Shown in pieces: positions 12,465 to 34,208 of a stretch of DNA of 38,730 nt (positions are counted from its first letter, which is position 1; every line of letters begins with the position of its first letter). The notes below the pieces were generated by a model that saw nothing but the letters and a program-made list of their open reading frames with translations, was not told the DNA's origin and ran no database searches. This stretch comes from a virus. Lineage: Duplodnaviria; Caudoviricetes. The translations under genes and the position numbers were made by a program. The stretch spans positions 1 to 38,730 of IMG/VR virus record IMGVR_UViG_3300027830_000004; one strand, 5' to 3'.

Positions 12465-13151
12465 ATGGACATAATGGAAAAGAATGTAAATGTTCAATCA
12501 CAGGCATTTGTGAATGTATATCAAGGAGCAATAACATCAGAAAATTGTAAAAAAATAATTGATTTTATAAATTCAAGTGATTTAAAACCAGGTCTAATGT
12601 CTGGTGGTAAGATGAAAAAAGTGAATCCTAAAATAAAAGATTCACTTGATATCACATTAAATTTTTCAGATTCGAGTCTTGCCACTGAAATTCTTAAAAA
12701 TGCATTACACTTTTGTAGTCAAGATTATATAAGAAGAAATCATGAATTAGAAAGAATTCAAGAGTTTGGATTATTTGATACATATAATTTACAAAAATAT
12801 AATCCTGGCCAAGGTTATCATAGTAGTCATTGTGAAAATGCTGGAGGTGCAAATTCTTTTAGAGTACTCGCATGGATGGTTTATTTAAATACGGTAAATG
12901 ACGGAGGTGGGACTTCTTTTGATAATTATGGATTTGAAACGAAAGCACAAGAAGGTGCATTATTGATTTGGCCAGCGTTCTGGACACATTTTCATCATGG
13001 TGTAGTAAGTCCAACTGAAACCAAATACATCGCTACTGGTTGGTATTCTTATAATAGTTTTCTTGGTGTGCCTTGTGATCGAATTGATTCTATTGGAATT
13101 CTTAACAAAGGTGAGGAACCACCAGAGGATGCAATTGTAATTGAACGATGA
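12465..13151 (+). CDS. 2OG-Fe(II) oxygenase (prolyl-4-hydroxylase-like)
   Basis: YNLQKY.PGQGY..SHCE (HxE)...RVLAWMVYLN.V.DGGGT.F...WPA.WTH.H.G...KYIATGW. Confidence 0.9.
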   Translation: MDIMEKNVNVQSQAFVNVYQGAITSENCKKIIDFINSSDLKPGLMSGGKMKKVNPKIKDSLDITLNFSDSSLATEILKNALHFCSQDYIRRNHELERIQEFGLFDTYNLQKYNPGQGYHSSHCENAGGANSFRVLAWMVYLNTVNDGGGTSFDNYGFETKAQEGALLIWPAFWTHFHHGVVSPTETKYIATGWYSYNSFLGVPCDRIDSIGILNKGEEPPEDAIVIER

Positions 13152-13185: not shown

Positions 13186-14934
13186 ATGGCGATAACCATA
13201 AGTGGTGCTAATAATGTAGATAAGATTCTGGCAACGGATGGAGTGTTAGATTCAATTTCTGGTTTTAATGTAGTCGGTGTGATGACTGCAGGGACTTTTG
13301 ATGTGACTGGAAAAACAACCACTGGTCATCTTAATGTTGGAAGTAATATACACATAGGAAATGCAGGTATTATAACTGCAACAACATTAATTGGAAATGT
13401 AACTGGTAATATAAATCATACTTCTAATCTTCTTCTTCAAATTAGTGGTAGTGAAAAATTTCGTGTAGGAACTTCAGGTCAGTTAGGAATCGGTGGTGCA
13501 AACTACGGAACATCAGGACAGGTATTAACAAGTGGTGGTTCAGGTAGTGCAGCAACTTGGAGTACGATTACATCAGATAAAATTACAGAAGGAAATACAG
13601 AGGCAGAAGTAGTAGATACAGGTTCAGACGGGCATTTCAAAGTTACAACTGAAGGTAGTGAAAGACTTCGCATCACATCAGATGGTAATATTGGTATCAA
13701 TGACACTGCACCTCCTAATTTTACTGGTTATAAAAGTCTTTCCATACACGGATCGACTGGTGGTGCACTTGTATTTGGTGATGATGGAACGGATGAGTGG
13801 GAGATATATGGGGGAGATGGAGTTGTAAAAATATATGATAGAGCAAACACACAAGAAAGAATTCGTATTTCAGATAATGGTGCGATTGGATTAGGCGGTG
13901 CAAATTATGGATCATCAGGTCAGGTATTAACAAGTGCTGGTTCAGGGAGTGCTGTAACTTGGAGTACGATTTCAGGAACAACAATAAACAATAATGCAGA
14001 TAATAGAATAATAACTGGTTCAGGAACCGCAAATACATTAGAAGGTGAATCTACACTTAATTATGGTGGTAATCAGTTAACCTTTAGTGGTACTGCAACT
14101 CCACTATCAGGAACAGGTCATAATTATTCAGTAAACATTTATAGGGATGGTGGAGGTGGATATGGTTATCTTGATGTAGTAACAGGATCATCTAATCATA
14201 CTGGAATAAGAATTAGAGCATATCATAATGGAACCTATAATAATGTTTTTGAACACACTACTGGTGATTTCACAAGATTTTATACTGGTGGAAATGAAAG
14301 ACTTCGCATCACATCAGATGGTAAAGTTGGGATTAATGAAACTTCTCCAGATGGTATGCTTCATCTGAAAGGTGGTGTTCCTGCAATATTTTTAGAGGAT
14401 AGTGATGGAACTCATGGACAGGCTATCATTGAACAAAATGGTGATATTTTAAAAATTAGACAAGATGCTGGAAATGCTTCCAGTGGAACTGGATCAGTTA
14501 TACAATTTGAAGTTGATGCTCAGGCTTATGCAAAAGTCGATACAGCATTCGGACTTAAGGCTGATAATACTTGTAAGGCATGGCTTTGTTATCGAAGTGA
14601 AGCAGGAAATGAAGGTATAATAGATGACTTTAATGTTGCTACTGTAAATGATGAAACCACAGGAACATTTGGTGTAAACCTAGAGGTTAATGTACATAGA
14701 CATGGTAATGGATGGTCTCAATCCATTGTGTTTGGATGTTATAATGACGGATCTAGACCACTTATAGCCTCTGTTGGATACGCACCATCTCATGGTAGTA
14801 ACAACCCTTGGTGGGATGTAGAAGATAATTTCGTGCGTGTACAAACTCAGCGTTCCGACAATGGTACTGTGCTTGATGCTAAAGTATTTAACTTGGCAAT
14901 GTTCGGAGACACTGGAGATCTTCACCCTGCTTAA
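13186..14934 (+). CDS. Tail fibre protein, 582 aa
   Basis: GGANYGxSGQVLTS x2, DTGSDGH, ERLRITSDG x2 and TINNNADNR modules; KAW...FNVATVND..TGTF.V tip domain. Confidence 0.85.
   Translation: MAITISGANNVDKILATDGVLDSISGFNVVGVMTAGTFDVTGKTTTGHLNVGSNIHIGNAGIITATTLIGNVTGNINHTSNLLLQISGSEKFRVGTSGQLGIGGANYGTSGQVLTSGGSGSAATWSTITSDKITEGNTEAEVVDTGSDGHFKVTTEGSERLRITSDGNIGINDTAPPNFTGYKSLSIHGSTGGALVFGDDGTDEWEIYGGDGVVKIYDRANTQERIRISDNGAIGLGGANYGSSGQVLTSAGSGSAVTWSTISGTTINNNADNRIITGSGTANTLEGESTLNYGGNQLTFSGTATPLSGTGHNYSVNIYRDGGGGYGYLDVVTGSSNHTGIRIRAYHNGTYNNVFEHTTGDFTRFYTGGNERLRITSDGKVGINETSPDGMLHLKGGVPAIFLEDSDGTHGQAIIEQNGDILKIRQDAGNASSGTGSVIQFEVDAQAYAKVDTAFGLKADNTCKAWLCYRSEAGNEGIIDDFNVATVNDETTGTFGVNLEVNVHRHGNGWSQSIVFGCYNDGSRPLIASVGYAPSHGSNNPWWDVEDNFVRVQTQRSDNGTVLDAKVFNLAMFGDTGDLHPA
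13660..13688 (+). repeat. Junction repeat GAAAGACTTCGCATCACATC(AGATGGTAA), copy 1
   Basis: The 29 bp are identical at 14296-14324. The 20-bp core is exact at 21442 and 21664; near copies at 17251, 23475 and 27683. Confidence 0.9.
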
Positions 14935-14939
14935 ATAAA

Positions 14940-15149
14940 ATGGCTGACACAACAAAAGTATTAATTTACAACAACGAATTTGGAACAATTACGGTTTGTT
15001 ATCCTTCTGCTAGAACCAAGAAAACTTGGGATGAAATTAAAGCAGGAATTGGAACTGTAATGTGTCCTGATCAACAATTTCATTTGGTAAATAGATCGGA
15101 TGTACCTACTGATAGAACATTCCGTGATGCTTGGACTTACACACCTTGA
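14940..15149 (+). CDS. Small fibre-associated protein (putative assembly chaperone, part 1), 69 aa
   Basis: Directly follows the fibre gene; ends in DVPTDRTFRDAW. Confidence 0.65.
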   Translation: MADTTKVLIYNNEFGTITVCYPSARTKKTWDEIKAGIGTVMCPDQQFHLVNRSDVPTDRTFRDAWTYTP

Positions 15150-15160
15150 GGTAATTAAAA

Positions 15161-15424
15161 ATGGGATTTGGAATCAATATGTCCAGAGCAAAGGACATTC
15201 ATAAAAATAATATTCGTGAGGCTAGGAAAGATAAACTAGCAGCATTGGATATTGAGTTTCAGATAGCACAAGAAACTAGTGCAGATACTTCTGCTATTGT
15301 TGCAAAGAAACAAGTATTGAGAGATTATCCTGCTCGTGCTGGAATTGCTACTGCTGTTAATACACAAGATTTAAAAGCAGATTGGGATACGACTATTCTT
15401 GGAGATAAACCACAAGGTTATTGA
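15161..15424 (+). CDS. Small fibre-associated protein (putative assembly chaperone, part 2), 87 aa
   Basis: GAGGT SD; helical IREARKDKLAALD...KKQVLRDYP resembling the chaperone LR..R...L..D...Q.LRD.P pattern. Confidence 0.65.
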   Translation: MGFGINMSRAKDIHKNNIREARKDKLAALDIEFQIAQETSADTSAIVAKKQVLRDYPARAGIATAVNTQDLKADWDTTILGDKPQGY

Positions 15425-15906
15425 TGATTAAACTTGATTATCCTTACGCATCCGAATTGAATCCTTTATTATATCAAATATCAAAGGATGATATTGAGTT
15501 TTCTGAAGCAGCAGAATTGCATGTAAATGCAATGGATAAACCTGAAGTCAGAACAATTAAAGTTCCAGGCGATGCTACATTAACTGCTCTTAATATACAT
15601 CAAAAAGATATTAAAGAAGTAGATAAATTTTTTAATTGGTTAAATAAATCAATAGGTGTAGAAATTAAAAGAAGTTGGGTAATAGTATATAACAAAGGTC
15701 AGTCTGCTAATAGTCATCGTCATATAGAATATAAAACAACTTTTTCTTATGGTATTAACATTCCAGAGGGTTCTTCTCCTTTAATTATATCTGGTAATAA
15801 AGTAGAACCAGTTGTAGGTGAAGTTATTGCTTTCTCTGGGGAGTTGTATCATAGTGTTCCAGCATCTGAAATTGATGGTAGATGTGTTCTTGTTGGTCAT
15901 GGATAA
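15424..15906 (+). CDS. 2OG-Fe(II) oxygenase-like protein (HxH type)
   Basis: SWVIVY.KGQ....HRH...SY...GEVIAF.G.LYHSVP.....R.V. The ATG at 15424 overlaps the upstream TGA and is preferred over TTG 15421. Confidence 0.75.
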   Translation: MIKLDYPYASELNPLLYQISKDDIEFSEAAELHVNAMDKPEVRTIKVPGDATLTALNIHQKDIKEVDKFFNWLNKSIGVEIKRSWVIVYNKGQSANSHRHIEYKTTFSYGINIPEGSSPLIISGNKVEPVVGEVIAFSGELYHSVPASEIDGRCVLVGHG

Positions 15907-15911
15907 AATAC

Positions 15912-15918
15912 ATAAATA
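15912..15918 (+). promoter_or_regulatory. T4-like late promoter ATAAATA
   Basis: ATAAATAACTAAAAAA precedes ATG 15934. Confidence 0.75.
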
Positions 15919-15933
15919 ACTAAAAAAATATAA

Positions 15934-18900
15934 ATGGTATTAAGTAGACTCACAAAGATAACTGGACCTGGTGTTGCGACAGACACCAACTGGGTGGGTA
16001 ATAATGCCGATTTTACTGGTATCACTACCACTGCTACATCATTTAATATTGGTGTAACAACATTTCACTCTACACTTGCAGAAGTACATAATATTAAATC
16101 AACAGGAATTATAACTGCAACTGGTGGATCTTTTTCAGGAAATGTTACTGCAACTGGTGGATCTTTTTCAGGAAATGTTACTGCAGTTGATGGAACTTTT
16201 TCAGGTAATGTTTCAATCGCAGGTACATTAACATATGAAGACGTAACTAATATAGATGCAGTTGGTATAATTACTGCACCAGCACTTGATGTTGATGACT
16301 TTTTAGATGTAGGAAGCAATATAAAATTAGGAAATGCAGGTGTCATAACAGCAACAAGTTTTGTAGGTAGTGGTGCTGCTCTAACTGGAATAGATGCAAC
16401 TGCAATCAAAGATTCTGGTGGTAACGTAAAGATTCAAGCACAGGCATCAGGTGCAATTCATTCTGGTGTTTCAACTTTTCAAGATATAGATGTTGATGGA
16501 CATACAAATCTAGATAATGTAAGTGTTGCTGGTGTTTCAACTTTTCAAGATATAGATGTTGATGGACATACAAATCTAGATAATGTAAGTGTTGCTGGTG
16601 TTACAACATTCACAGGTGATACAACCTTTAGTGGTGCGACAAGTGCTATATCTGTTGATGGTGATATAAGATTTACTAATAGTAGTTGGGCAGGTAATGC
16701 TGGTGCTAAATTACAACATCATAATAATTATTTGTATATAACCACTGGAGCTAGTGGATTGTATATTAGGGATGAAGGTTCAAATAATTGGTGGGTTTTC
16801 GATACTAATGGTCATTTCAAACCTGTCATCGATAGTGCAATTGATATTGGAACTAGCTCTGTTCGTGTGAGAAATGGATATTTTGATACCTTATATGGTA
16901 GTGGTGCGAACTTAACTTCATTACCAGCACAAGCAACCATCGCAAACAACGCAAACAATCGAGTCATAACTGGCGGTAGTGGAGTTAATTTAAATGGTGA
17001 AGTAGATTTAGTGTGGGACGGATCGAGGATGGGTGTTTTAAATCAAGCACCTCAAAATCAATACTTCAACACCCTTGTAGTTGGAAATAATTCTGCAGGA
17101 GATAAGGGGATAACAATTCGGACAAACAACACTAGTAAAGGTGTTCTAGCATTTTCTGATACTGATAGTGCTGATGCAAATAGGTATGATGGATATATTT
17201 CATATCAACATAGTGATCAGTCAATGCGTTTCAATACAGGTGGAGCAAATGAAAGACTTCAGATCACATCAGCTGGGAATGTTACTATAGCAACAAATGA
17301 TGTAGCACTTCGTGGAGCAGGAACATTAAGAATTAACAGTGGTTCTACTTCTGGAGCATTAAATTTAGATGGAGGATCTACTAATCATGGTGGTGAAATA
17401 AATCTTCTTGGTGGTAGTAATGGTGGAAGAATATTATTCAGAACTGGACAAGGTTCAGGACAGCAAAGTGAAAAAATGCGTCTTAATGAGAATGGTAATC
17501 TTGGTGTTAACGAGACAAGTCCACAAAGACGTTTCCATGTGACTGGTTCTGCTGGTGATGGTGGTGGTGCTGCACATTTTGGAGTAGCGGGAACGAACGG
17601 TGGAAATGCTTATATTGGTGACACTCCTGTAGTTACAATATCAACAGATGGAAATGCAAATGCTGGAACTAATGATGAAAAAGCACTATTCCAAGTTGGT
17701 AGAGGTGGCGGTGGTGCGGGTGCTACAGCAGTTACAACAGAGCATTTTAGAGTTAATTTGGGTGGTGCGGTTCAGATTGGTGGTGCGGTTGGAAATAATG
17801 CAGATATTGATATTGCAAATACAAAACTGACTATCAAACAATCTGCAAATAATAGAGAAGACGGTATCTATCTTGAGAGAACTGGAGAAAGAAGAGGATG
17901 GTTAATGTTTGTTGGTGGTTCAGGTAGTTATAATGATGCTTTTTGTTTATCTACTAATCAGATGGGAACTAAAACTGATGTTTTAGCAATTGATAGAGGT
18001 AATAGACTTGCAAAACTTGGTGGTGATGTTATTATTGATAGCACTAATAATGGATACGGTGGATTAAGAATTTATGACGATAGCTCTGGTGGATACAATG
18101 TAAATTATGTTGGTGGAAGAAGTGATGGTAATATGTCTCATGTATTTAAGTCTGGTGGTAGAAGTCAAAACCAATCACCTTGGACAGATGCTAGTGGTTC
18201 TGAAATAATGAGAGTAAGTCTAAGTAATGGACTACAACTACAGGGTGATACTGATTCAGCACTTCAATTTCATACAGGTGATCATTATAAATTCAAAACA
18301 AAAGATAGAGAAAGAGTACATTTAGACAACAGGGGTGTGTTGACAGCACCTAAATTATCAACTAAGGCATTAATATTCTCATCTTGTACCAACAAATGGG
18401 CTTCTTCGAGAACTATAACGAATTTTGTGATGCAATTCTACACTGGATCTTCAGGTTCAACATATCACTTTATGAGAATGATTTCACAACCTGACTGGGC
18501 TTTTGATGATGTTGAAATTAGACAATATCGTTATCAATATAATCCATCTGGGTCTGACCATACTGTAAGAAGATATTATTCTTACTATGGTAGTCATAGT
18601 GAACAAATAGTTAGGTACAACCAAAATGGTAGTGGAACTGGTACTGGAAATGATAACTATATAACTAAAAGAACTGACTTTGGACCAGGTGGTTCAATGA
18701 CAATTCACCAAGCATCAAATGGTGGATATTATAGAGACTTATATGGTAGTGATTATGCAATAAGTCTAGGTGCGTATTATGGTGTAGTGCTAGAAATTAA
18801 AATTACTGCTAGTGTTGGCGTATATGATACTGGTGACTATCCAACTGCATATGATTTTTATCCAGCAAACTATGGTGGACAGGCAACACAAAGTAATGCA

Positions 18901-19041
18901 GATAATCATGGTGGTCCTAGAGGTGTTTGGTTTAATACCAAAGCAAACGGAACTGGTTCTGGAACAGCACCAGTCATATCAAGCAAAAACTCTGATAGAG
19001 GATGGTTCACTGGTTCCAACTTCTTAGATACATCATTATAG
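15934..19041 (+). CDS. Long tail fibre protein, 1035 aa
   Basis: Shared modules; serial ERLQITS/EKMRLN/EHFRVN/EIMRVS repeats separate variable segments; unique aromatic-rich C-terminal domain. Confidence 0.85.
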   Translation: MVLSRLTKITGPGVATDTNWVGNNADFTGITTTATSFNIGVTTFHSTLAEVHNIKSTGIITATGGSFSGNVTATGGSFSGNVTAVDGTFSGNVSIAGTLTYEDVTNIDAVGIITAPALDVDDFLDVGSNIKLGNAGVITATSFVGSGAALTGIDATAIKDSGGNVKIQAQASGAIHSGVSTFQDIDVDGHTNLDNVSVAGVSTFQDIDVDGHTNLDNVSVAGVTTFTGDTTFSGATSAISVDGDIRFTNSSWAGNAGAKLQHHNNYLYITTGASGLYIRDEGSNNWWVFDTNGHFKPVIDSAIDIGTSSVRVRNGYFDTLYGSGANLTSLPAQATIANNANNRVITGGSGVNLNGEVDLVWDGSRMGVLNQAPQNQYFNTLVVGNNSAGDKGITIRTNNTSKGVLAFSDTDSADANRYDGYISYQHSDQSMRFNTGGANERLQITSAGNVTIATNDVALRGAGTLRINSGSTSGALNLDGGSTNHGGEINLLGGSNGGRILFRTGQGSGQQSEKMRLNENGNLGVNETSPQRRFHVTGSAGDGGGAAHFGVAGTNGGNAYIGDTPVVTISTDGNANAGTNDEKALFQVGRGGGGAGATAVTTEHFRVNLGGAVQIGGAVGNNADIDIANTKLTIKQSANNREDGIYLERTGERRGWLMFVGGSGSYNDAFCLSTNQMGTKTDVLAIDRGNRLAKLGGDVIIDSTNNGYGGLRIYDDSSGGYNVNYVGGRSDGNMSHVFKSGGRSQNQSPWTDASGSEIMRVSLSNGLQLQGDTDSALQFHTGDHYKFKTKDRERVHLDNRGVLTAPKLSTKALIFSSCTNKWASSRTITNFVMQFYTGSSGSTYHFMRMISQPDWAFDDVEIRQYRYQYNPSGSDHTVRRYYSYYGSHSEQIVRYNQNGSGTGTGNDNYITKRTDFGPGGSMTIHQASNGGYYRDLYGSDYAISLGAYYGVVLEIKITASVGVYDTGDYPTAYDFYPANYGGQATQSNADNHGGPRGVWFNTKANGTGSGTAPVISSKNSDRGWFTGSNFLDTSL
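16114..16185 (+). repeat. Exact 33-bp in-frame tandem repeat (TATGGSFSGNV x2 plus partial)
   Basis: actgcaactggtggatctttttcaggaaatgtt at 16114 and 16147. Confidence 0.95.
16463..16602 (+). repeat. Exact 66-bp in-frame tandem repeat (GVSTFQDIDVDGHTNLDNVSVA x2)
   Basis: Identical units start at 16463 and 16529. Confidence 0.95.
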
Positions 19042-19050
19042 GAGATTATT

Positions 19051-19437
19051 ATGTACGCATACATTGTAAACAACAAAATTAGTGAAATTTACCCTTCAAA
19101 TGAGAAGCCAGGTAAATGTATTAAAATGCCTGATGATTACTGGTTATCGGAAACTCATGATTATAAGTATGATCCTGAAACCGATTCAATTGTAGAAGAT
19201 TTTAATCCACCAGGTCCTCCAGTTCCAACTCAAGAGGAACTCGATGAATATGATCTCACTGCTCTAAGACAAGAAAGAGATGTATATTTGGGTGCGACAG
19301 ACTGGGTTGTGACAAGGGCAGCTGAAACAGGTGAACCAGAACCAGCTGAATGGAAAAAATATCGACAGGATCTCAGAGACATTACCAAGACATATAAAAA
19401 CCAGCACGAAGTTGTCTGGCCAACTCCTCCATCATAA
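19051..19437 (+). CDS. Phage tail fibre assembly chaperone, 128 aa
   Basis: LRQERD.YL..TDW......E......W..YRQ.LRDI.......V.WPTPP; AGGAG SD; directly follows a fibre. Confidence 0.85.
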   Translation: MYAYIVNNKISEIYPSNEKPGKCIKMPDDYWLSETHDYKYDPETDSIVEDFNPPGPPVPTQEELDEYDLTALRQERDVYLGATDWVVTRAAETGEPEPAEWKKYRQDLRDITKTYKNQHEVVWPTPPS

Positions 19438-19440
19438 ATA
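19434..19440 (+). promoter_or_regulatory. T4-like late promoter ATAAATA
   Basis: ATAAATAACTAAAAAG overlaps the stop codon and precedes ATG 19455. Confidence 0.75.
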
Positions 19441-19454
19441 ACTAAAAAGTAATA

Positions 19455-20414
19455 ATGGCATTTACTCGGATACTTGGTCCAGGTATTCATACCGCATCCA
19501 ATATAAACAGTCATAATATAAAGTCTACAGGTATTATTACTGCAGTATCCTTTGTAGGTGATGGATCTGGATTAACTGGTGTTGCGTCTACTGACAACAT
19601 CATTACTGGAACTGCTGCAACATTCAACACATATCCAGTTGATATTAATGCGGGAATGACTGTTGCTGGTGTATCCTCTTTTGCATCTGCAATATCTGGA
19701 ACCACTGCAAACTTTAGTGGTAATGTAAGTGTTGGTGGAGTCTTAACATACGAAGATGTCAAGAACGTAGATTCACTAGGCATCATTACAGCAAGGTCTG
19801 GTGTAGATGTAGATGACTTTTTAGATGTTGGAAGTAATATTAAATTAGGAAATGCAGGTGTTATCACTGCTACAACATTTAAAGGTGATGGTGACTTTGT
19901 AGAATTAGATGTAGATGGTCATACAAATTTAGATAATGTAAACGTTGCTGGTGTAACAACTTTTGCAAGCACTGTAAATGCAGGGACTATAAATGCTACA
20001 TTATTCAGTGGTGCTTCACAAATCGGTATTCAATCTGCAGGTACTCAAATTGGTGCTGGTATTACTCAACTTAATTTTGTAGGAACAGGTAATACATTTG
20101 CAGTTAATGGAACCACAGTAGATATTAGTATTGCAGGTGGTGGTGGAGCTGGTGCTGGTGGAACTTGGAGTACATACACCGCTGGTATTGCAACCACTAA
20201 ATCAGTTGGAGTTAACACATCAAATCTTGACGATACTGATTTAACTGGTATTGGTAATTCATTCAAAGGATTATACATAAGCAATGGAATGATTGTTCAT
20301 GATAATGTGTTGAATGGTAATCATTATATTGGAACTTCGATGAATGGTTTAATGGCAGGTCCAGTAACTATTGATGGTAATCTTGAAATTGACGGTAATT
20401 ATGTCGTCGTATAA
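19455..20414 (+). CDS. Short fibre/adaptor protein, 319 aa
   Basis: Shared modules; C-terminal NGLMAGPVTIDGNLEIDGNYVVV motif. Confidence 0.8.
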   Translation: MAFTRILGPGIHTASNINSHNIKSTGIITAVSFVGDGSGLTGVASTDNIITGTAATFNTYPVDINAGMTVAGVSSFASAISGTTANFSGNVSVGGVLTYEDVKNVDSLGIITARSGVDVDDFLDVGSNIKLGNAGVITATTFKGDGDFVELDVDGHTNLDNVNVAGVTTFASTVNAGTINATLFSGASQIGIQSAGTQIGAGITQLNFVGTGNTFAVNGTTVDISIAGGGGAGAGGTWSTYTAGIATTKSVGVNTSNLDDTDLTGIGNSFKGLYISNGMIVHDNVLNGNHYIGTSMNGLMAGPVTIDGNLEIDGNYVVV

Positions 20415-20420
20415 TAAATA
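20414..20420 (+). promoter_or_regulatory. T4-like late promoter ATAAATA
   Basis: Immediately after the stop, 13 nt upstream of ATG 20434. Confidence 0.7.
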
Positions 20421-20433
20421 AAAATAAAATCAT

Positions 20434-22809
20434 ATGTCAGCGATAAGTCAAAAAAGTATATCTGGTATCACAAGTATCACATCCCCTGCAGGTACTGATG
20501 ATCAAATTTCGCTGCATACAAGTAATACAAACGAAGCATTAAAAATAGATGGTGCTGGTAATCTTCATCTTAACAATCATGTAAACACAACTGGTGTTAC
20601 AACAGCATCAAATTTTAAAACAGGTTCATCAAATTTACATAGTACTGGATTAACTGTTGGTGATACTTTTGTTCATTCAACGGGTGTAAATGGATCGTCT
20701 ATGGATGTAGATGATTTTATAAGTGTAGGTACTAATATTCATCTTGGTAATGCAGGTGTTATCACTGCAACATCATTTAGTGGTGATGGTTCAAATTTAA
20801 CTTCTTTACCTGCTGGATTAGGAACAGCATTAAGTAGCACTCAAACAGATCCGTTAAACAAACTGTATTACACTAATCAGGTTCTTGGTGTTGGTGCAAC
20901 AATTACAGTTGATCCTCCTGAATCAGCATCAGCAGCATATACTCAATATGCAGATATTAAAGTTGATAGTGATGCTGATTTAATTATTGCAGAAGGCGAT
21001 GACTTAATACCTGATGTTTTAGGGTTAGCAGACTTTGGAAACTTTGGTGGTGGTGCAAGTGCAGGTAGAATTCGTGTTAATTCAATCACAAACGCAGCAG
21101 CAAATGGTGCAACAACAATTCAGAATGGTGTTGTAATATCTGGAATGACCACTATCACAGGTGGATTATCTATTGGTGGTACGATAACTTATGAAGATGT
21201 AACTAACATAGATTCAATCGGAATCATAACAGCACGTTCAGGTGTAGACGTAGATGATTTTGTAAGTGTTGGAAGTAATATTCATCTTGGAAATGCAGGA
21301 ATTATAACAGCATCATCGTATCGTGGTGATGGATCACAATTAACTGGAATTGTTGCTGATAAAATATTTGAAGGAAATACAGAGGTAGAAACTATAGATA
21401 CGGGTTCTGATGGTCATGTAAAAATCACAACCGAAGGTGCTGAAAGACTTCGCATCACATCAAGTGGTGCGGTGATGATAAACACTACCAACTCATCATC
21501 AAGAACATTAAATCTTAATGGAACTTTTGGAATACTAAGCACTAACCAGAGTGGTGTACTTGATATGTCTGTAACTGATGCTGGTGCTGCATCAATTGGA
21601 CCATATGTCGCTGGTGGTTCAACATTAATATTAAAAACTAATGCATCTGGTTCAGGTGTTGCAGAAAGACTTCGCATCACATCTGATGGTAAAATTGGCA
21701 TAAACGACTCCACTCCCTCTGTTACCTTAGAAACAGTTGGACATAACCAAGTTACATTTGGAAGTATGCCAGAAACCATAATCTCGTATGGTACTGCCTC
21801 TGCATATAACTCTGGGTCTGCTGGTTCTGGTATTCAATTTGGAGGATATTATAATTCAACACCAGAGTACACAATTTTTGCTGGTGTTCATGGTGTAAAA
21901 CAAGACACTGGTAATGGAACTTATGGAGGAGCATTAATTCTCTCTGTTCGACAAAATAATACATCTAGTTTTGAGAGAATGAGAGTTTCTCAATATGGTA
22001 CTATAACCAATACTACAACTTCTTCACACTCTCAAGGAGCAGGAACATTTAATATTAAGGGAGTCATCAATCAATATTCTCAAGGAAGTGGAAGTGGATT
22101 GATATTTGACTGTGACTTTGGAAGATTAAGTTATTCTGATAATGCTGGTATAGGAAATGGAACTAATTTATCTGCTGCTTTGGCACATTCAACAACAGAT
22201 TGGACAAGTAGTAGCAGTAATATACCAATGACTGTAAACAATGGTTCGTTTAACTATAGAGTAGGATTTGGTGGGTACTTAGATTGTGTGTCAAACGAAG
22301 GTAGAGTGTCTATTGCAGCAGGAAGTGGATCTCCAAATATGGCAGAAAAATTAAATACCGCATCTATGACAATTGAATCTTGGATTTGGTATGACGGTGC
22401 TGGTAGAGAGGTGATAGTATCAAGATATGGAGGTGGATTCCCAAATCAATTTAATATGATTGCTGATCCAAATGGTCAGTTCCACTATAATAATAGTGGA
22501 GTTGGTGCTGGATCTGGTGATGTAGCTGGACAACATTTCCCTGATAAAACTTGGCATCATCATGTATGGCAGTATGATAGTGGTAATAATGTGAATAGGT
22601 GGTATATCAATGGTGCATTTGCTAACTCTAGAAGTGCTGGAAGTTCTCTTGCAGTAAGTAGTGCGACTGGATTTGCTATTGCATCAAGAGCAGATGACTA
22701 TGAAAGATGGGATGGTAAGATTGCTGTTGTAAGAATATATAATCGTGCATTGTCAGCAGCAGAAATCAAGAATCACTTTGAACTTGACCGTGGTAGGTTC
22801 GGAGTATAA
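20434..22809 (+). CDS. Tail fibre with a C-terminal LamG/concanavalin A-like lectin domain, 791 aa
   Basis: MTIESWI...WHHHVWQYD...RWYING...WDGKIAVVRIYNRALSAAEI (about 22366-22809); shared fibre modules. Confidence 0.85.
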   Translation: MSAISQKSISGITSITSPAGTDDQISLHTSNTNEALKIDGAGNLHLNNHVNTTGVTTASNFKTGSSNLHSTGLTVGDTFVHSTGVNGSSMDVDDFISVGTNIHLGNAGVITATSFSGDGSNLTSLPAGLGTALSSTQTDPLNKLYYTNQVLGVGATITVDPPESASAAYTQYADIKVDSDADLIIAEGDDLIPDVLGLADFGNFGGGASAGRIRVNSITNAAANGATTIQNGVVISGMTTITGGLSIGGTITYEDVTNIDSIGIITARSGVDVDDFVSVGSNIHLGNAGIITASSYRGDGSQLTGIVADKIFEGNTEVETIDTGSDGHVKITTEGAERLRITSSGAVMINTTNSSSRTLNLNGTFGILSTNQSGVLDMSVTDAGAASIGPYVAGGSTLILKTNASGSGVAERLRITSDGKIGINDSTPSVTLETVGHNQVTFGSMPETIISYGTASAYNSGSAGSGIQFGGYYNSTPEYTIFAGVHGVKQDTGNGTYGGALILSVRQNNTSSFERMRVSQYGTITNTTTSSHSQGAGTFNIKGVINQYSQGSGSGLIFDCDFGRLSYSDNAGIGNGTNLSAALAHSTTDWTSSSSNIPMTVNNGSFNYRVGFGGYLDCVSNEGRVSIAAGSGSPNMAEKLNTASMTIESWIWYDGAGREVIVSRYGGGFPNQFNMIADPNGQFHYNNSGVGAGSGDVAGQHFPDKTWHHHVWQYDSGNNVNRWYINGAFANSRSAGSSLAVSSATGFAIASRADDYERWDGKIAVVRIYNRALSAAEIKNHFELDRGRFGV

Positions 22810-22813
22810 CATC

Positions 22814-22820
22814 ATAAATA
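22814..22820 (+). promoter_or_regulatory. T4-like late promoter ATAAATA
   Basis: ATAAATAATCAAAAAG precedes ATG 22833. Confidence 0.75.
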
Positions 22821-22832
22821 ATCAAAAAGTAA

Positions 22833-24332
22833 ATGTCTAGAATAAGAACTAATCTTATAACAAACAGAATGGCAAACGGAGCACCTACCGTTTCTCATGG
22901 ATTAGTTATATCTGGAGTTACTACAGTCACAGGAAGTATTAATAATTTAAATCTCACTGGTATTACAACTTCTATTCAACATCAAGCTACGAATATTAAT
23001 GTAACAGGTGTTGTTACTGCAACAACTTTTTCTGGTTCTGGTGCAAGTTTAACAAATTTAAATGGTTCTAATATCGCATCAGGAACAGTTCCTGTAGCGA
23101 GAATCGGAACTGGAACCAAGAGTACTTCAACGTTCTACCGTGGTGATGGTACATTTGCAACAGTAACATCAACAACAATAAACAATAACGCAGACAATCG
23201 AGTAATTACTGGTTCAGGAAGTGCAAATACTTTAGAAGGTGAAGCAAATTTTACTTATAATTCTGATGTTGCAACTCTTACTAGATCAGGTAATGATAAT
23301 GCAAGTGGTCTTGTAATTGCCAATTCAAACAATTCGCAAGGAAGTGCTATTGCACAAGTAGAGATACAAGGTGGTGATAATGCCTCTGGAAGATTAAAAT
23401 TGGAATGCAGTGGTCAAAATCATACTTTGATTGAGGACTCTACAGGTAATTTATCAATTGAAGATAATGGCACAGAAAGACTTCGCATCGCATCATCTTA
23501 TGCAAGAATTGGTATTAATACGACTACTTTTGATACTGCTGGATCTCAAATAAAAATTGAGGGTCGAGGTGCTGGTACAACATCTCCTGCATATTTACAA
23601 ATAAAAGGTGTTGGTTCTGGTGTTGTCCACGCTTATGTTGATTTAATCGCTACTTCTGCGAACAATGCTGGATCTGCATATAGAGGACTTGGTGTTGTAA
23701 TGCTTGATGAACCAACGAATGTTGAATGGTTTTCTGGAAGACCTTATGCAGGTTCAGACGAATATATTATTAGTAGAAAAGCATCTCCTTCATATCGAAC
23801 ACAGTCAGGAGAGAAAGCAAATGCACTTTTTAAAGTTGGTAGTGATGGTAAACTATATAAAGGTGGAGACCAATTCTATCCACTTGTAAATTATTCTACG
23901 TATGCTACCTTTAGTGCTGTAAGTGTTTCTTCTAATTCTTATACTGATTTAAGAACAATACTGTCAAGTTATACTCCTAAAAAAGCAGGTAATCTGATTG
24001 TGATACACCATCAATCACAATGTTGGCAGGGTTCTAGTGCTACTGGCAATGGTGATGCGATGTGGAAGATTCAAAAACAAGAAGGTGGTGGAAGTTGGTC
24101 TGATGTGATTGCAAACGAGCGTATTATGGGTAACATGGATGGTCGAAATTATACTGGAGATAGTGGACTAGCAAGACATCATCGTACAGTTCACCTAATG
24201 GGTAGTTTTGAATGTGCTGGAACTTCAATTAGTTTGAAAACTCAAGGTAAAGTAGACTTTACAAGTCCTGGTTTACAATGGTATCATAATAATGAAAACA
24301 TACTCCAAGTTTGGGAATACGGGAAAGGTTAA
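22833..24332 (+). CDS. Tail fibre protein, 499 aa
   Basis: MSRIR.N.ITN N-terminus; SNIASGTVP, TINNNADNR and ERLRI modules; YTPKK...LIVI...LQVWEY tip domain. Confidence 0.85.
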   Translation: MSRIRTNLITNRMANGAPTVSHGLVISGVTTVTGSINNLNLTGITTSIQHQATNINVTGVVTATTFSGSGASLTNLNGSNIASGTVPVARIGTGTKSTSTFYRGDGTFATVTSTTINNNADNRVITGSGSANTLEGEANFTYNSDVATLTRSGNDNASGLVIANSNNSQGSAIAQVEIQGGDNASGRLKLECSGQNHTLIEDSTGNLSIEDNGTERLRIASSYARIGINTTTFDTAGSQIKIEGRGAGTTSPAYLQIKGVGSGVVHAYVDLIATSANNAGSAYRGLGVVMLDEPTNVEWFSGRPYAGSDEYIISRKASPSYRTQSGEKANALFKVGSDGKLYKGGDQFYPLVNYSTYATFSAVSVSSNSYTDLRTILSSYTPKKAGNLIVIHHQSQCWQGSSATGNGDAMWKIQKQEGGGSWSDVIANERIMGNMDGRNYTGDSGLARHHRTVHLMGSFECAGTSISLKTQGKVDFTSPGLQWYHNNENILQVWEYGKG

Positions 24333-24334
24333 TC

Positions 24335-24751
24335 ATGTACGATCATTTAATCTCACAAACACTTATTGGTATTGGTATTACACAATTTAGATTTGATACA
24401 GGTATTGTAGATGAATCTACTTACTTATCAAAATGTCAAGAGGTTGTTGGTGTCACAACAGACACTAATGAAGCAATTCTTAGTACACCATCTAAAGACT
24501 GGGCAACTTTCAAGGCAAAGTATGATGACTTGCAAACAAAATTTCCGATGGAAGAATTAAGAACGGTAAGAAATATGAAACTTACTGAAACTGATTGGTC
24601 TCAATTAGGTGATGTTCCTGTTGGAATTAAAACAACATATGAATCATATCGTCAATCACTTAGAGATCTTCCATCAAGTGCAAATCCAAGTTTAAATGAA
24701 AAAGGTTATCTTGATGATTCATCAGTTACTTGGCCAACGAAACCATCATAA
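24335..24751 (+). CDS. Phage tail fibre assembly chaperone, 138 aa
   Basis: LR.VRN.KL.ETDWSQL.D......Y..YRQSLRDLP...V.WPTKP. ATG 24335 (after AAGG) is preferred over TTG 24311. Confidence 0.88.
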   Translation: MYDHLISQTLIGIGITQFRFDTGIVDESTYLSKCQEVVGVTTDTNEAILSTPSKDWATFKAKYDDLQTKFPMEELRTVRNMKLTETDWSQLGDVPVGIKTTYESYRQSLRDLPSSANPSLNEKGYLDDSSVTWPTKPS

Positions 24752-24754
24752 ATA
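24748..24754 (+). promoter_or_regulatory. T4-like late promoter ATAAATA
   Basis: ATAAATAATCAGAAAG overlaps the stop codon and precedes ATG 24768. Confidence 0.75.
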
Positions 24755-24767
24755 ATCAGAAAGATAT

Positions 24768-26495
24768 ATGTCCAGAATAAGAGCCAATAAAATAACTAAT
24801 CAATTAGCGGATGGATCACCTACCGTTGAGAATGGTCTTATTATATCTGGAATTACAACTTCAACAACATTCAGTGGTAGTGGTGCAAGTTTAACTAATT
24901 TAAATGCATCAAATATAGCATCAGGCACAGTTCCTACTGCTAGATTGGGTTCTGGAACTGCAAGTTCATCAACATTCTTGAGAGGAGACTCAACATTCCA
25001 AACAGTTAATACAGATTTAGTTTCTGACAGCTCACCGCAGCTGGGAGGTAACTTAGATTGTAATAACAAAAATATAAGTCTTAATGATTCTACTGGTGGT
25101 ACTAACAATAGAATTAAAATTGGAACTAATGATGACCTACAACTTTGGCATAATGCCAGTACAGGAAATAGTAATGTAAGTAATTACAATGGAGATCTTT
25201 ATATACAAGGTAATAATGGAAGTGGTACTGGTGTAAATCAAATAGCTATTAAGTCTAATGCGGCTGTTGAATTAAATTATCAGGGAACTAAGAAATTTGA
25301 AACAAGTAGTTCGGGAGCTACCGTAACTGGAACTCTGACTGCAACTTCTTTCAGTGGTAGTGGTGTAAACTTAACTAGTCTACGAGCCAATCGAAATCTT
25401 ATAATTAACGGTGATTGTTCCGTGTGTCAATATCGAGGTATTACTGGAGAGACTACTGGTGTAGGTATATTAACAACTGACAGATGGAAACTTGAATATT
25501 CTGGTCACGATGAAGCGATTACACAAGAACATCGAAATAATCCTGTATCTGATGCACCATCTAAACTAGGTATATCACATAGTTTTCAAGTAAAGAATGG
25601 TAATCAGACTTCAACTGGTTCTAGCGATTATTGTAGAATAGTTTATACAATAGAATCACAATACATGAGAAATTCTGGTTGGGATTTTCAAAATTCAAAC
25701 TCTTATGTTACTTTATCTTTTTGGGTAAAATCTAGTGTAAGTAAGAACTTTTATGGAATGGTATTTTGTCAAGATAGTCCATTTTTGCAACGTTCTTTTG
25801 AGACAGGTACATTATCTGCTAACACTTGGACAAAAGTAGAAATATCAATTCCTGGTTATTCGACTATGAACTTTGACCATAATGAAGGTCCAGGTTTTAT
25901 TATCTATTGGTATTTGTATGCTCCAACTTCCTATACTTCTGGTAATGGTCCTTTAAATACATGGATGGGTTATAACTCAACCAAATTTACTCCTACCGAT
26001 TCTGATGCTTGGTGGACAGCTGATAACGCAACCTTTGATATTACAGGAGTTCAACTTGAAGTTGGAAGTGTAGCGACTCCGTTTGAATTAAAAAATTACG
26101 ATCAAAATCTTTGGGAATGTAAAAGATATTACCAACGATCAACTGACCAAAACCGTGGAGCTAATTACTCATTAGAAACATCTACTTGGCATTCTGCTGA
26201 TGGTGTACAGAGTTTTAGTAAACATAATAACTATTATGACTTTAAACAAAACTTTGAGCGTGAAATGAGAGTCCCTCCAACTCTTACAATTTATGGGTCA
26301 TCTAATCAAGGTGATATTCACCTTGAAAGTATCGCTGTTGGAAGTAAACAGGTTGATTGGAATAATAATACAACAGAGGTGCAAACCAAAGGTTTTTTAC
26401 TCAGACATATTGAAGACCAAAGTTCTGGCAACTACACAAGTGGTTCTGGTAATGCTTTTGGTATTCTAGCTTACACATTAGACGCAGAATTTTAA
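24768..26495 (+). CDS. Tail fibre with a carbohydrate-binding-like C-terminal region, 575 aa
   Basis: RNLIINGD...DRW...VTLSFWVKS...ITGVQLEVGSVATPFE...CKRYYQ pattern; MSRIR N-terminus. Confidence 0.85.
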   Translation: MSRIRANKITNQLADGSPTVENGLIISGITTSTTFSGSGASLTNLNASNIASGTVPTARLGSGTASSSTFLRGDSTFQTVNTDLVSDSSPQLGGNLDCNNKNISLNDSTGGTNNRIKIGTNDDLQLWHNASTGNSNVSNYNGDLYIQGNNGSGTGVNQIAIKSNAAVELNYQGTKKFETSSSGATVTGTLTATSFSGSGVNLTSLRANRNLIINGDCSVCQYRGITGETTGVGILTTDRWKLEYSGHDEAITQEHRNNPVSDAPSKLGISHSFQVKNGNQTSTGSSDYCRIVYTIESQYMRNSGWDFQNSNSYVTLSFWVKSSVSKNFYGMVFCQDSPFLQRSFETGTLSANTWTKVEISIPGYSTMNFDHNEGPGFIIYWYLYAPTSYTSGNGPLNTWMGYNSTKFTPTDSDAWWTADNATFDITGVQLEVGSVATPFELKNYDQNLWECKRYYQRSTDQNRGANYSLETSTWHSADGVQSFSKHNNYYDFKQNFEREMRVPPTLTIYGSSNQGDIHLESIAVGSKQVDWNNNTTEVQTKGFLLRHIEDQSSGNYTSGSGNAFGILAYTLDAEF

Positions 26496-26497
26496 CT

Positions 26498-26659
26498 ATG
26501 GCTTACGCTTACAAAAAAATGAAAAATGAGGATGGTACTGAACAAAATTACATCCTTGCTGAAAAAGGTATGGTAATACCAAAACATCCAGAAAATAGAC
26601 ATTACCAGGAATACCTTGAATGGGTCGCTGCTGGAAATACACCAGCAGAGGCAGATTAA
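26498..26659 (+). CDS. Small fibre-associated chaperone-like protein, 53 aa (absent from the ORF track)
   Basis: Hand translation gives MAYAYKKMKNEDGTEQNYILAEKGMVIPKHPENRHYQEYLEWVAAGNTPAEAD*, with an IP..P.N..YQ.YL.W...GN.P motif. It fills the gap 2 nt after the fibre stop. Confidence 0.85.
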   Translation: MAYAYKKMKNEDGTEQNYILAEKGMVIPKHPENRHYQEYLEWVAAGNTPAEAD

Positions 26660-26673
26660 CTTAGTGTTAATTA

Positions 26674-26680
26674 ATAAATA
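26674..26680 (+). promoter_or_regulatory. T4-like late promoter ATAAATA
   Basis: ATAAATAATCAAAAAG precedes ATG 26696. Confidence 0.75.
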
Positions 26681-26695
26681 ATCAAAAAGATATAA

Positions 26696-28621
26696 ATGAC
26701 ATCCGAGATACGAGTTAATAAAATTAATAACCGTGCTGGGCTGGGTACTGTAGAGTACACTCCCACAGGTATTATAGTATCTGGAATTGTCACTGCTTAT
26801 GAGTTTGATGGAAACTTTGATACAACACCAGGCATTGTTGTAACAGGAATCGCAACTGCAGCAGGAATAGATTTAAATGGTGATTTAGATGTAGATGGTC
26901 ATACAAATTTAGATAATTTAAGTGTTGCTGGAGTATCTACATTTTCTAGTAATATAACACTTAATGGTGGACTAGTTGCAAGTAGTACAGTAAATGCAGG
27001 ACAAATTTTAGTTGGTACTGGTGTTACAATCGAAGCAAATCAAGTTGCAACTGGACAGGCAACATTCACTGGTATCGTAACTGCATCACATTTTTATGGT
27101 AATGGTGCAAACTTAACTGCTTTAAACGCATCAAACATATCATCAGGAACAGTTCCGTCTGCAAGATTAGGTTCTGGAACTGCAAGTTCCTCTACATTTC
27201 TTGCTGGAGACTCTACATTTAAAACAGTAACAGGAACAACAATAAACAACAATGCAGATAATAGATTAATAACTGGTTCGGGAAGTGCAAATACTTTAAA
27301 TGCAGAATCAAACTTAACTTTTGATGGAACTACTTTACAAGTTGAAAATTCTGGTTCAGGATTAAGAAATTTACTAAGACTTAAAAATAGCAATGCAAGT
27401 GCTGGTGTATCAGGTTTATATTTTAATAGCACTACATCAGGTACAGCGTTTGATGCTGCCTGTGTTCGTAATGGAGTTAATGGATCAGGGCAGGGAAGAT
27501 TATATCTACAAACTAACAACGGTAGCGGATTAGTAACTAATTTAAATATAGAGTATGATGGACAAGTTTCTATACCTACCAATTCACTTAATATTATTGA
27601 TAGTATTGTTCATATTGGAGATACTGATACAAAGATAAGATTTCCTTCTGATAATCAAATTTCATTTGAAACTGGTGGTGCGGAAAGATTTCGCATCAAC
27701 AATATTGGTCATGTAACTGTTAACGCAACTTCATATCAAGCTCTCACTATAACGACAAGTGAAAATGGAACAAATGGACCAGAAATACAACTAATGCATA
27801 ATTCTGCATCTCCTGCTGCAAATGATACTATTGGTCAATTAAGATATAGTGGAAAAGATAGTGCTGGTGATACAACACTTTTTAGTAAAATAGAAACAAA
27901 AGCAACTACTGTCACAAATGGGTCAGAAACTGGACATATAGATTTCTCTACAAGAGGAGGTGGAGCATACAATAGTATGTTCCGTTTGAGTGCTAGAGGC
28001 ACTGCAAGTGCTCCAAGTTATACTACAGATGATATGAATGGTATCATTCTTGATACCTATAATACAGGAAATCCATATCCAAGATATTTCAATTTCATCG
28101 CCAAAGCTGCTGGCAATACTGATAGTAATATAGGGTTCTGGACTGAAGCAGTTGGTGGTTCCCCAACTCAAAAAATGACTATTGACGCATCAGGAACTAT
28201 AACAACACCTCTGCACCCTATTTTTGCGACAAGAATTAATTATGTAAACTCATATGTAAGTTCTGGTACAAAAATTCAAATGAAAGCTGCTCATATTGAT
28301 ACAAGAAGTAGTTTTAGTGACGCAAATGATAGGTATGTTGCACCTGCTGCTGGAAGATATTTATTTTATTTCTTTTCAAATATTGATTATAATGGTGATG
28401 GAACAATTGCTGTTATATTTAGGAAAAATGGTTCAGATTTTACTTCTTCAGAGGGTGGTCATATCTACAGTTATGCACAAAATTCTGGATGGCATCTACT
28501 CAGTGGGCAGATAATTACAACTATGGCTGTAAATGATTATATGGAAGTTTTCACCTCAGCTAATAATATGAAAGTTGATGGAAATAGTTATGGTCAGTTT
28601 GGTGGATACATGATAGGATAA
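26696..28621 (+). CDS. Tail fibre with a C-terminal C1q/TNF-like domain, 641 aa
   Basis: PIFA...RYVAPAAGRYLFYF...MAVNDYMEVF...FGGYMIG; shared fibre modules. Confidence 0.85.
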   Translation: MTSEIRVNKINNRAGLGTVEYTPTGIIVSGIVTAYEFDGNFDTTPGIVVTGIATAAGIDLNGDLDVDGHTNLDNLSVAGVSTFSSNITLNGGLVASSTVNAGQILVGTGVTIEANQVATGQATFTGIVTASHFYGNGANLTALNASNISSGTVPSARLGSGTASSSTFLAGDSTFKTVTGTTINNNADNRLITGSGSANTLNAESNLTFDGTTLQVENSGSGLRNLLRLKNSNASAGVSGLYFNSTTSGTAFDAACVRNGVNGSGQGRLYLQTNNGSGLVTNLNIEYDGQVSIPTNSLNIIDSIVHIGDTDTKIRFPSDNQISFETGGAERFRINNIGHVTVNATSYQALTITTSENGTNGPEIQLMHNSASPAANDTIGQLRYSGKDSAGDTTLFSKIETKATTVTNGSETGHIDFSTRGGGAYNSMFRLSARGTASAPSYTTDDMNGIILDTYNTGNPYPRYFNFIAKAAGNTDSNIGFWTEAVGGSPTQKMTIDASGTITTPLHPIFATRINYVNSYVSSGTKIQMKAAHIDTRSSFSDANDRYVAPAAGRYLFYFFSNIDYNGDGTIAVIFRKNGSDFTSSEGGHIYSYAQNSGWHLLSGQIITTMAVNDYMEVFTSANNMKVDGNSYGQFGGYMIG

Positions 28622-33195: not shown

Positions 33196-34208
33196 TGGCG
33201 ATTCTATCCGCTGGTCTTAATCATCCACAGGGTGGACAAATGCAATATGAGTTCTTCTCTGGTGGAACATCATATATGGTGAATGTTTTTACACAATCAG
33301 GAACTTTATATGTCCCTGTCTCAAAAACTGCTGTTATTTTGATGATAGGTGGTGGTGGATCAGGTGGTAATGCTTATGGAGATAATGACACTGGTAAAGG
33401 AGGTGGTGGTGCAGGTGGTTGCTGCTTCCACACTTCTTATTCTTTGACATCTGGAACAGGAAATTATCGAATTATAGTTGGGAATGGTGGGAAAGGTAGA
33501 TATAAAACAAATAACGATGGTACATTATCAAAAGGTGGTACAAATAGTGGAGATGATACAAAAGCATTCGGTGTAGTTGCAAAAGGTGGTGGACAAGGTG
33601 GACTGAGTGATAATTATTTGAGAGCACTTGATGGTGGATGTGGAGGTGGAGCTGGAGCACGTAATGGTAATGGTGGTTGGAATAATGGAGCAGGTAGCGA
33701 CCAAGGAAGTTATAGTGGTTGGACAACTTACGGATATAGTGGAGGAAACTCTGCACAAGGTAACTACTCTGGTGGTGGAGGAGGTGGAATAGGAGGAAAC
33801 GGTAGTGCTCAAAGTGGTGGATCTAATGATTCTAACTCACAAGGTGGAACTGGTGGTGCAGGAAGAGATTTTTCAGCATACTTTGGAACTCGTGTAGGAG
33901 ATAGAGGATGGTTTGGTGGTGGTGGAGGTGGAGGCACCTATCGTCACGGTACAAATACTGTATATCAAGCACCAGGAAATGGAGGAGGTAGTAATTACGG
34001 TGGCGGTGGTTATGGTGTTGGTGCTCGTGAATCTTCACAAAATGATGCTGCTATGTCAATCGATCAAATTTGCGGAATGGATGGAACTGGTGGTGGTGGA
34101 GGAGGAGCCTCAGAGTGTCGAAGTGGTAATAGACAAGATCGTCGAGAGAGTGGTGCTGTATGTGGTAGTGGTGGTAGTGGAATTGTAATCGTTAGGACAC
34201 CTATCTAA
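33195..34208 (+). CDS. Glycine-rich putative fibre-tip adhesin, 337 aa
   Basis: VFTQSGTL...ILMIGGGGSGG...GGGGAGG...GSGGSGIVIVR; many poly-Gly tracts; TAATG coupling with a GGAGG SD. Confidence 0.8.
   Translation: MAILSAGLNHPQGGQMQYEFFSGGTSYMVNVFTQSGTLYVPVSKTAVILMIGGGGSGGNAYGDNDTGKGGGGAGGCCFHTSYSLTSGTGNYRIIVGNGGKGRYKTNNDGTLSKGGTNSGDDTKAFGVVAKGGGQGGLSDNYLRALDGGCGGGAGARNGNGGWNNGAGSDQGSYSGWTTYGYSGGNSAQGNYSGGGGGGIGGNGSAQSGGSNDSNSQGGTGGAGRDFSAYFGTRVGDRGWFGGGGGGGTYRHGTNTVYQAPGNGGGSNYGGGGYGVGARESSQNDAAMSIDQICGMDGTGGGGGGASECRSGNRQDRRESGAVCGSGGSGIVIVRTPI

Follow-up and report, generated by a model that had tools for sequence, protein, structure and literature searches.

The 38,730-bp virus contig IMGVR_UViG_3300027830_000004 (Duplodnaviria; Caudoviricetes) from IMG/VR, analyzed over its entire length and here called the window, was found to carry a DNA sequence of about 21 bp, the connector, that recurs in frame inside several fibre-like genes. 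We propose that the connector is an in-frame joint between modules of predicted trimeric fibres, at which related cyanophages have swapped single modules, likely in a homology-dependent manner during co-infection. In the most likely reading it is not a shufflon but a microhomology standard that reinforces itself and is located at a fibre joint of the mosaic adhesive trimer (MAT) type.

A preliminary description of the window, made from its letters alone, had pointed to a 20-bp repeat as a candidate crossover site. The exact 20-mer was found at 13660, 14296, 21442, and 21664, with two mismatches at 17251, with one at 23475 and partially at 27683, and the 29-bp identity between the first two copies was confirmed. 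Six matches with no more than three mismatches were present in the window compared to none in 100 shuffles. All copies were located on the + strand, in frame, within open genes (starting at 13186, 15934, 20434, 22833, and 26696), and encoded ERLRITS-type peptides. The copies had also been described as bracketing unique in-frame segments; this was the case, except that the 212-aa stretch between 13660 and 14296 was shown to consist of two modules separated by a decayed junction at 13855, the second part opening with a block that also occurs at other places in the window.

Within 18 open reading frames (ORFs) of the window, six of the nine in-frame CGC codons fell within the connector, and the probability of four identical copies under the codon use of the window was about 6e-7. 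The genes at 35458 and 36982 encode the same peptide joint as GAA AGA TTA AGA, as first described, and neither there nor in phages of 50% GC did the ERLR-type peptide show silent constraint. Outside the window, the exact 20-mer was present at no fewer than 148 viral loci, with 145 distinct contexts among the matches listed, all of them open frames with unrelated flanks. A codon-blind scan, accepting any coding of ERLRITSDG(K/N) and covering 123 loci (the number of such stretches being estimated at 210), yielded 45 AT-rich contexts. Two haplotypes dominated these: version A, which is that of the window (18 bases exact in 11 contexts; 0.013 expected), and version B, GAA AGA CTT CGT ATA ACT TCT (exact in 16 contexts; 0.195 expected), so that 27 of the 45 contexts contained one or the other compared to 0.2 expected.

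The conservation extended to variant peptides. In contigs chosen for version A, ERLRID and EKLRIT were encoded by the same codons 34 and 47 times more often than expected, whereas the comparison repeats DVDGHT, GHTNLD, TYEDV, and GTLTYE reached only 1.4–4.7 times expectation despite having flanks that were more alike. Among unrelated controls, IGGTLT (14.7 times) and GGTLTY (7.2 times) scored highest, and GKVGIG, directly downstream of the connector, formed a weaker second constrained block (34 times). When ERLRITS units were excluded, the second arginine was encoded by CGC in 159 of 236 units from A contigs and by CGT in 153 of 187 units from B contigs. The constraint was limited to about codons 0–7 with fairly sharp edges, and was weak at the invariant glycine, codon 8. 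Pure A or pure B haplotypes at the four silent sites were found in 487 of 654 units, from loci partly chosen by these haplotypes, and A/B hybrids in 21 and 5 of the 654; most contigs contained a single version and few mixed the two. GC content was 35.9% for loci with A and 38.2% for loci with B; the GC-richer version is thus found in the AT-richer loci, which argues against codon bias. The earlier suggestion that the DNA is maintained beyond the peptide was therefore borne out, synonymous conservation being far above that expected from codon use and above that of other repeated fibre peptides.

A third haplotype, version C, was observed in phages of about 50% GC (S-CBP1, which is L584, and loci L491–L575), mostly once per contig and with varied upstream sequences. 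As few contigs had more than one copy and their remaining junctions were unconstrained, version C was attributed to the descent of a single module and not considered further; in podovirus fibres it may act as a swap point at one site.

Retention of the codons for translation, for instance to pause it where a joint folds, or as an RNA or promoter signal, would agree with the position of the motif at the module joint and with codons that are rare in the window. We regard this as very improbable, as the four silent sites at which A and B differ are tightly linked, the tRNAs of S-TIM5 read AGA and ATA, which are two of the version B codons, no shared fold was found, and the breakpoints and hybrid haplotypes would be left unexplained.

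In 271 ORFs with junctions, homologous segments had 522 internal right ends, of which 204 were located at a junction (31.7 expected), and 488 left ends, of which 82 were (15.5 expected). Alignments in both directions showed 95–100% identity up into the motif and unrelated sequences past it, a change seen across a set of 1,498 junctions. Linkage across a 75-bp gap at 90% identity was retained in 21 of 37 pairs within modules compared to 12 of 69 and 6 of 32 pairs across the motif. Whole modules were shared in 22 cases. Both sides were testable for 17 of these, and the neighbours were new on both sides in 11, on one side in two and on neither in four. The LTYEDV repeat, with nine breakpoints compared to 1.7 expected, may be a weaker breakpoint. 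Cultured isolates showed the same pattern: S-TIM5 and S-TIM61 shared a stretch of 11,169 bp at 99.9% identity that ended at position +14 of a motif copy, and then differed over about 1.2 kb; the breakpoints between S-TIM5 and S-TIM66 were at +14, +22, +23, +24, +33, and +44, with several others far from any motif. Modules of S-TIM5 were also found in contigs L365 and L857, where identity stops at the motif; we take these contigs to carry T4-type neck, terminase or sheath genes. Breakpoints among relatives, including cultured isolates, are thus enriched at the motif, and the tests of synonymous conservation and of breakpoint enrichment both support the recombination hotspot that had been suggested.

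Two observations on the arrangement of modules were made besides. In L302, a single ORF contained the same downstream module twice (99% identity) after two different upstream modules, which is a duplication, at the connector, within a gene. In L365 and L857, connector copies were found in a large gene amid what we presume to be neck and terminase genes; together with the three separate regions of G001 noted below, this suggests that the module pool may supply several appendages of the virion.

Mosaics of this kind could be assembly chimeras joined at the repeat, given that the loci were mostly metagenome assemblies and that the repeat is near common k-mer lengths. This is hardly credible, since cultured isolates have the multi-copy motif and the same junctions, many junction pairs differ inside the motif, and contigs of other public runs span six of the seven window copies (the copy at 14296 was not spanned in the pieces listed); one of these runs may be the source of the window. 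Joints listed between window copies had a short side of at most 27 letters and are best read as motif copies of other phages; they were not used.

The crossovers were centred on the first 15 bases of the connector. They were fitted far better by a mixture of positions from about −7 to +35, tailing out to +58, than by a single point. A fixed crossover point was rejected, being incompatible with no fewer than 10 of the 26 pairs compared at 95% identity and 36 of the 76 compared at 90%. Judged from 86 pairs that share the upstream side and 63 that share the downstream side, linkage was half-switched at +4 to +6 and mostly with the downstream module by +15. The preliminary description had also offered the repeat as a cassette boundary; swapping at the motif was upheld and a single cut point was not. 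The term homology zone is preferred to cassette site because the cut points varied and a search for site-specific recombinases found none.

No tyrosine or serine recombinase was found among the 20 proteins of the window, in line with the preliminary description. Tyrosine and serine recombinases (PF00589 and PF00239) were detected in none of the five complete genomes, although a very diverged enzyme could be missed, and the same genomes contained no match to ERF, Rad52 or RecT. RecA/UvsX was found in four of the five, three of the matches being above the cut-off. Exchange by a UvsX-type enzyme, as initially proposed, is possible in the T4-like members, but it cannot be the sole route since S-TIM5 had no RecA-family match.

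Version A was found in the cultured phage P-TIM68 and in the complete genomes G001 and G002, whose psbA genes were nearest to those of Prochlorococcus phages. Version B was found in S-TIM5, S-TIM54, S-TIM61, and S-TIM66 (Aurunvirus), S-SM2 and S-B05 (Kyanoviridae) and S-SKS1 (Llyrvirus), and in the complete genomes G003 and G004, which contain Synechococcus-phage psbA. The connector version thus appears to follow the host genus, A being of Prochlorococcus type and B occurring in Synechococcus phages of three lineages. G001 contained 25 connector matches and S-TIM5 12, and up to 17 junctions were found in one gene. Copies in the complete genomes were co-oriented, the only off-pattern matches being those at G001 74295 and G003 158785, with one mismatch each. 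About 2,900 stored stretches were estimated to contain the motif.

Some further observations concern individual carriers. The copies on G001:C1 were distributed over three separate regions (31677, 132464–138757, and 170176–184006). In the psbA/psbD region of G002 (L588 and L592), photosystem genes were matched in pieces, as from an intron or insertion. Near-A connectors were present at 4007 and 6471 of L583, the Pelagibacter phage Kolga; at 6471 the upstream flank was that of L787 and the downstream flank differed. The connector system may extend beyond cyanophages.

The association of version with host genus across unrelated phage lineages could also be explained by a dedicated factor, either a host Xer-type recombinase or an unrecognized host or phage nuclease, that recognizes the motif and triggers exchange with variable crossovers, A and B then corresponding to the differing factors of Prochlorococcus and Synechococcus. 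We consider this improbable, despite several observations in its favour. Positions +5 to +15 of version B were identical to the 11-mer XerC arm of an Acinetobacter pdif site (as listed in the available part of PMC10132070), the core of which was retained in 364 of 533 B-type units; the edges of the constraint were fairly sharp; and S-TIM5 had no recognized homologous recombination protein. The XerC core was, however, found in only 4 of 642 A-type units. No unit contained a XerD arm with 9 of 11 matches at spacers of 5–8 bp, and the mean XerD-arm score (1.6–3.0 of 11 matches) was under the background of 3.3–3.4. Crossovers were not at one point, and their half-way position was left of the XerC cut. 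Four copies, folded six times in all, shared no conserved hairpin of attC type (z-scores +0.6 to −1.7), and no integrase or resolvase was detected in the five genomes. Among 185,579 prokaryote genomes the 20-mer was matched once, in Desulforhabdus, which by estimate was treated as chance. If such a factor did act, it would amount to a programmed, ocean-wide combinatorial diversification of fibres common to unrelated phage families.

At the protein level, a profile of 40 junctions matched four solved Bdellovibrio MAT fibre chains (E 2e-10 to 6e-4), and a single window sequence matched Bd2133 weakly (E 0.034). MAT fibres are described, in the available part of the source, as trimeric beta-helix fibres (PMC10769870). 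The recurring shaft element ERxRI-x-x-x-G-x-VGIG, a feature of MAT/S74 type, was present at the junctions. Judged from the profile matches to solved chains, the connector peptide is an old structural element, occurring once per shaft subdomain, and the window proteins may adopt a trimeric beta-helix fold. A single-chain structure prediction was unusable (pLDDT 39.6), and the protein atlas returned unnamed clusters only.

With a structural joint of this age, shared with Bdellovibrio fibres, crossovers could occur anywhere and only those at the joint would give a folded protein, the DNA identity being a passive footprint of copying or short gene conversion that does not raise the exchange rate. 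The four isolate junctions with a partner lacking the motif, described below, and the weak breakpoints at other repeats such as LTYEDV are in agreement with this. The explanation is nevertheless unlikely: neutral copying should not yield two near-monomorphic haplotypes of rare codons, the peptide is unconstrained in the genes at 35458 and 36982 and in 50%-GC phages, and decayed junctions were exchanged less. In the pooled junctions (1,498 from 563 loci, those above 44% GC being excluded), both flanks were kept by the closest relative in 10 of 271 pairs with 0–3 mismatches to a consensus (near-identical pairs left out) compared to 14 of 36 pairs with four or more (p 6e-9).

Several points weigh against homology-dependent exchange at the connector. 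The dose–response between mismatches and kept flanks does not separate cause from effect. At four junctions between S-TIM5 and S-TIM61 or S-TIM66, the partner did not contain the DNA motif and the crossovers were located at +22 to +44; the motif is thus unnecessary on both sides, the protein joint itself admits crossovers, and selection at the protein level accounts for part of the breakpoint enrichment. Most loci were chosen by the motif itself and the pairs were not fully independent. Linkage was non-monotonic, +15/+16 being tied more tightly to the downstream module than +21/+22. At 21 bp the connector is on the short side for RecA or UvsX to exchange efficiently, and S-TIM5 showed no match to RecA, ERF, Rad52 or RecT, nor does its annotation name a recombinase. 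Rearranged molecules from the window's own population were not seen in the contigs of public runs. Concerning the hosts, only one A phage is cultured and the two others were assigned via psbA, a mobile gene; in addition, two of the three junctions of Kolga were near-A, so the host-genus rule is not strict.

With these points considered, module exchange at the connector is still most likely due to homology-dependent recombination in co-infection rather than by a site-specific recombinase. Exchange would need 20–50 bp of near-identity in register. Modules with ends matching the commonest connector of the host's phage pool would enter many fibres and spread under host-range selection, whereas a drifted junction would stop exchanging and stay with its neighbours. 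Such feedback would keep one connector standard per co-infecting gene pool, A for Prochlorococcus and B for Synechococcus. The protein joint would set where crossovers yield a folded fibre, and the DNA identity would make crossovers frequent. Candidate enzymes are UvsX in T4-like members and host RecA or replication-linked annealing in S-TIM5.

The junctions, modules, and connector-bearing genes of the window are listed in the table.

Table. Connector copies, decayed junctions, shared modules, and fibre-like genes in the window.
Feature	Position	Strand	Basis
Connector, version A, exact (ERLRITS)	13660..13680	+	motif match
Connector, version A, exact	14296..14316	+	motif match
Connector, ERLQITS, two changes within one codon; Arg in relative L705	17251..17271	+	motif match
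Connector, version A, exact	21442..21462	+	motif match
Connector, version A, 20/21 bases	21664..21684	+	motif match
Connector, ERLRIAS, one amino-acid change, silent sites retained	23475..23495	+	motif match
Connector, partly decayed (ERFRINN), 14/15 of first bases retained	27683..27703	+	motif match
Decayed junction EKFRVGT, co-inherited with flanks in L281	13453..13473	+	
Decayed junction ERIRISD; right edge of module shared with L681	13855..13875	+	
Decayed junction EKMRLNE; right edge of module shared with L705	17470..17490	+	
Decayed junction ERMRVSQ, ahead of the laminin-G-tipped end of the gene	21973..21993	+	
Internal control: peptide joint as in connector, ordinary codons	36241..36261	+	
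Internal control: peptide joint as in connector, ordinary codons	37765..37785	+	
65-aa module, recurs in L681 at 87% identity, both neighbours differ	13660..13854	+	
73-aa module, recurs in L705 at 86% identity, both neighbours differ	17251..17469	+	
74-aa module, recurs in L323 at 87–88%, equal length, both neighbours differ	21442..21663	+	
Tail-fibre-like gene, 582 aa, 2 intact and 2 decayed junctions	13186..14934	+	ORF, profile matches
Fibre-like gene, 1035 aa	15934..19041	+	no Pfam/PHROG match; has fibre repeats in common
Fibre-like gene, 791 aa, laminin-G/ConA-like C-terminal domain	20434..22809	+	domain search
Tail-fibre-like gene, 499 aa	22833..24332	+	ORF, profile matches
Tail-fibre-like gene, 641 aa	26696..28621	+	ORF, profile matches

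The window has a GC content of about 36% and long genes that are all on one strand. Pfam and PHROG matches were to tail fibre, baseplate, tail collar, S74 chaperone, tail assembly chaperone and 2OG-Fe(II) oxygenase proteins, and the single named phage matching the gene at 34208 was Synechococcus phage S-SRM01 (48%). These matches suggest a fibre island of a T4-like cyanophage. Fibre-rich islands as such are already known, phage P-SSM2 having, according to the available part of the source, 12 putative fibre genes with repeats (PMC1079782). An older second set of repeats (LDVDGHTNLDNVSVAG, LTYEDVT, and GSNIHLGNAG), with near-ordinary silent variation, was found in the genes at 901–4767, 9309–11411, 15934–19041, 19455–20414, and 26696–28621. 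Two tandem 504-aa collar/short-fibre paralogues with His-rich SDPGH repeats (35458–36972 and 36982–38496) contain the peptide joint of the connector in ordinary codons. The island also contains a subtilase (Peptidase_S8) gene (4767–6689) and, among the fibre genes, 2OG-Fe(II) oxygenase genes (12465–13151 and 15421–15906, the latter under the family cut-off).

The open question addressed is by what means the receptor-binding fibres of lytic cyanophages vary quickly enough to keep up with diverse hosts. These results supply a unit of variation, modules of 65–200 aa, together with a crossover zone that can be mapped. Module swapping would let phages reshuffle the fibres with which they grip their hosts, and swaps are assumed, from the role of fibres, to alter host range. 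As a DNA mark, the connector appears to separate two host-linked gene pools and yet to cross phage family lines; it is an example of an assembly standard that has arisen de facto, with no dedicated enzyme known. Cultured carriers (S-TIM5, S-TIM61, S-TIM66, S-SM2, and P-TIM68) make direct tests possible, and the motif can be used for an inventory of fibre modules in ocean metagenomes.

A prior description of the connector, of its two versions or of single-module shuffling in cyanophages was not found in the literature searched, whose coverage mostly left out subscription literature and supplements. These three thus appear to be new, whereas motif-mediated fibre swapping is known. Tetart, Desplats, and Krisch reportedly described, in 1998, motif-mediated swapping of adhesins at the distal fibre locus of T-even phages, with swaps at the adhesin tip. 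As at that locus, short conserved in-frame motifs in fibre or adhesin genes here probably serve as homology-driven crossover points without a site-specific enzyme, homology is conserved above that of the flanks, and natural chimeras break within the motif. Unlike there, a 21-bp sequence is here present up to 17 times per gene and 25 times per genome and frames internal modules of about 65–200 aa, with fixed silent sites and two versions across unrelated lineages. Shufflons, invertible fibre cassettes and Xer/pdif systems likewise use short in-frame repeats to join alternative adhesin parts; compared to shufflons and Xer/pdif, the connector has no recombinase that could be found, its copies are direct, and it has no second arm and no fixed crossover. 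Bdellovibrio MAT fibres (PDB 8OML, 8OND, 8OL4, and 8OJN) are also mosaic and share the recurring shaft element F-x-T...E-R-[LM]-R-I-T-x-x-G-x-V-G-I; in the available part of the source, exchange of their tips is described at the protein level and without a DNA connector (PMC10769870), whereas the connector is found in phage genes. In E. coli O-antigen phages, conserved DNA motifs around receptor-binding domains were proposed as hotspots, and these motifs, like lambdoid boundary sequences (Clark 2001, as cited there), resemble the connector in that the DNA is more conserved than its surroundings, is shared across genera and is a proposed hotspot of recombination for receptor-binding parts, as far as described in the available part of the report (PMC10408124). 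The same part gives them a mean identity of 63–81% and places them at the flanks of one domain or of a whole cassette, one being a non-coding terminator (PMC10408124); the connector, in comparison, is often 100% identical, is present in multiple copies per gene, and has had its breakpoints mapped.

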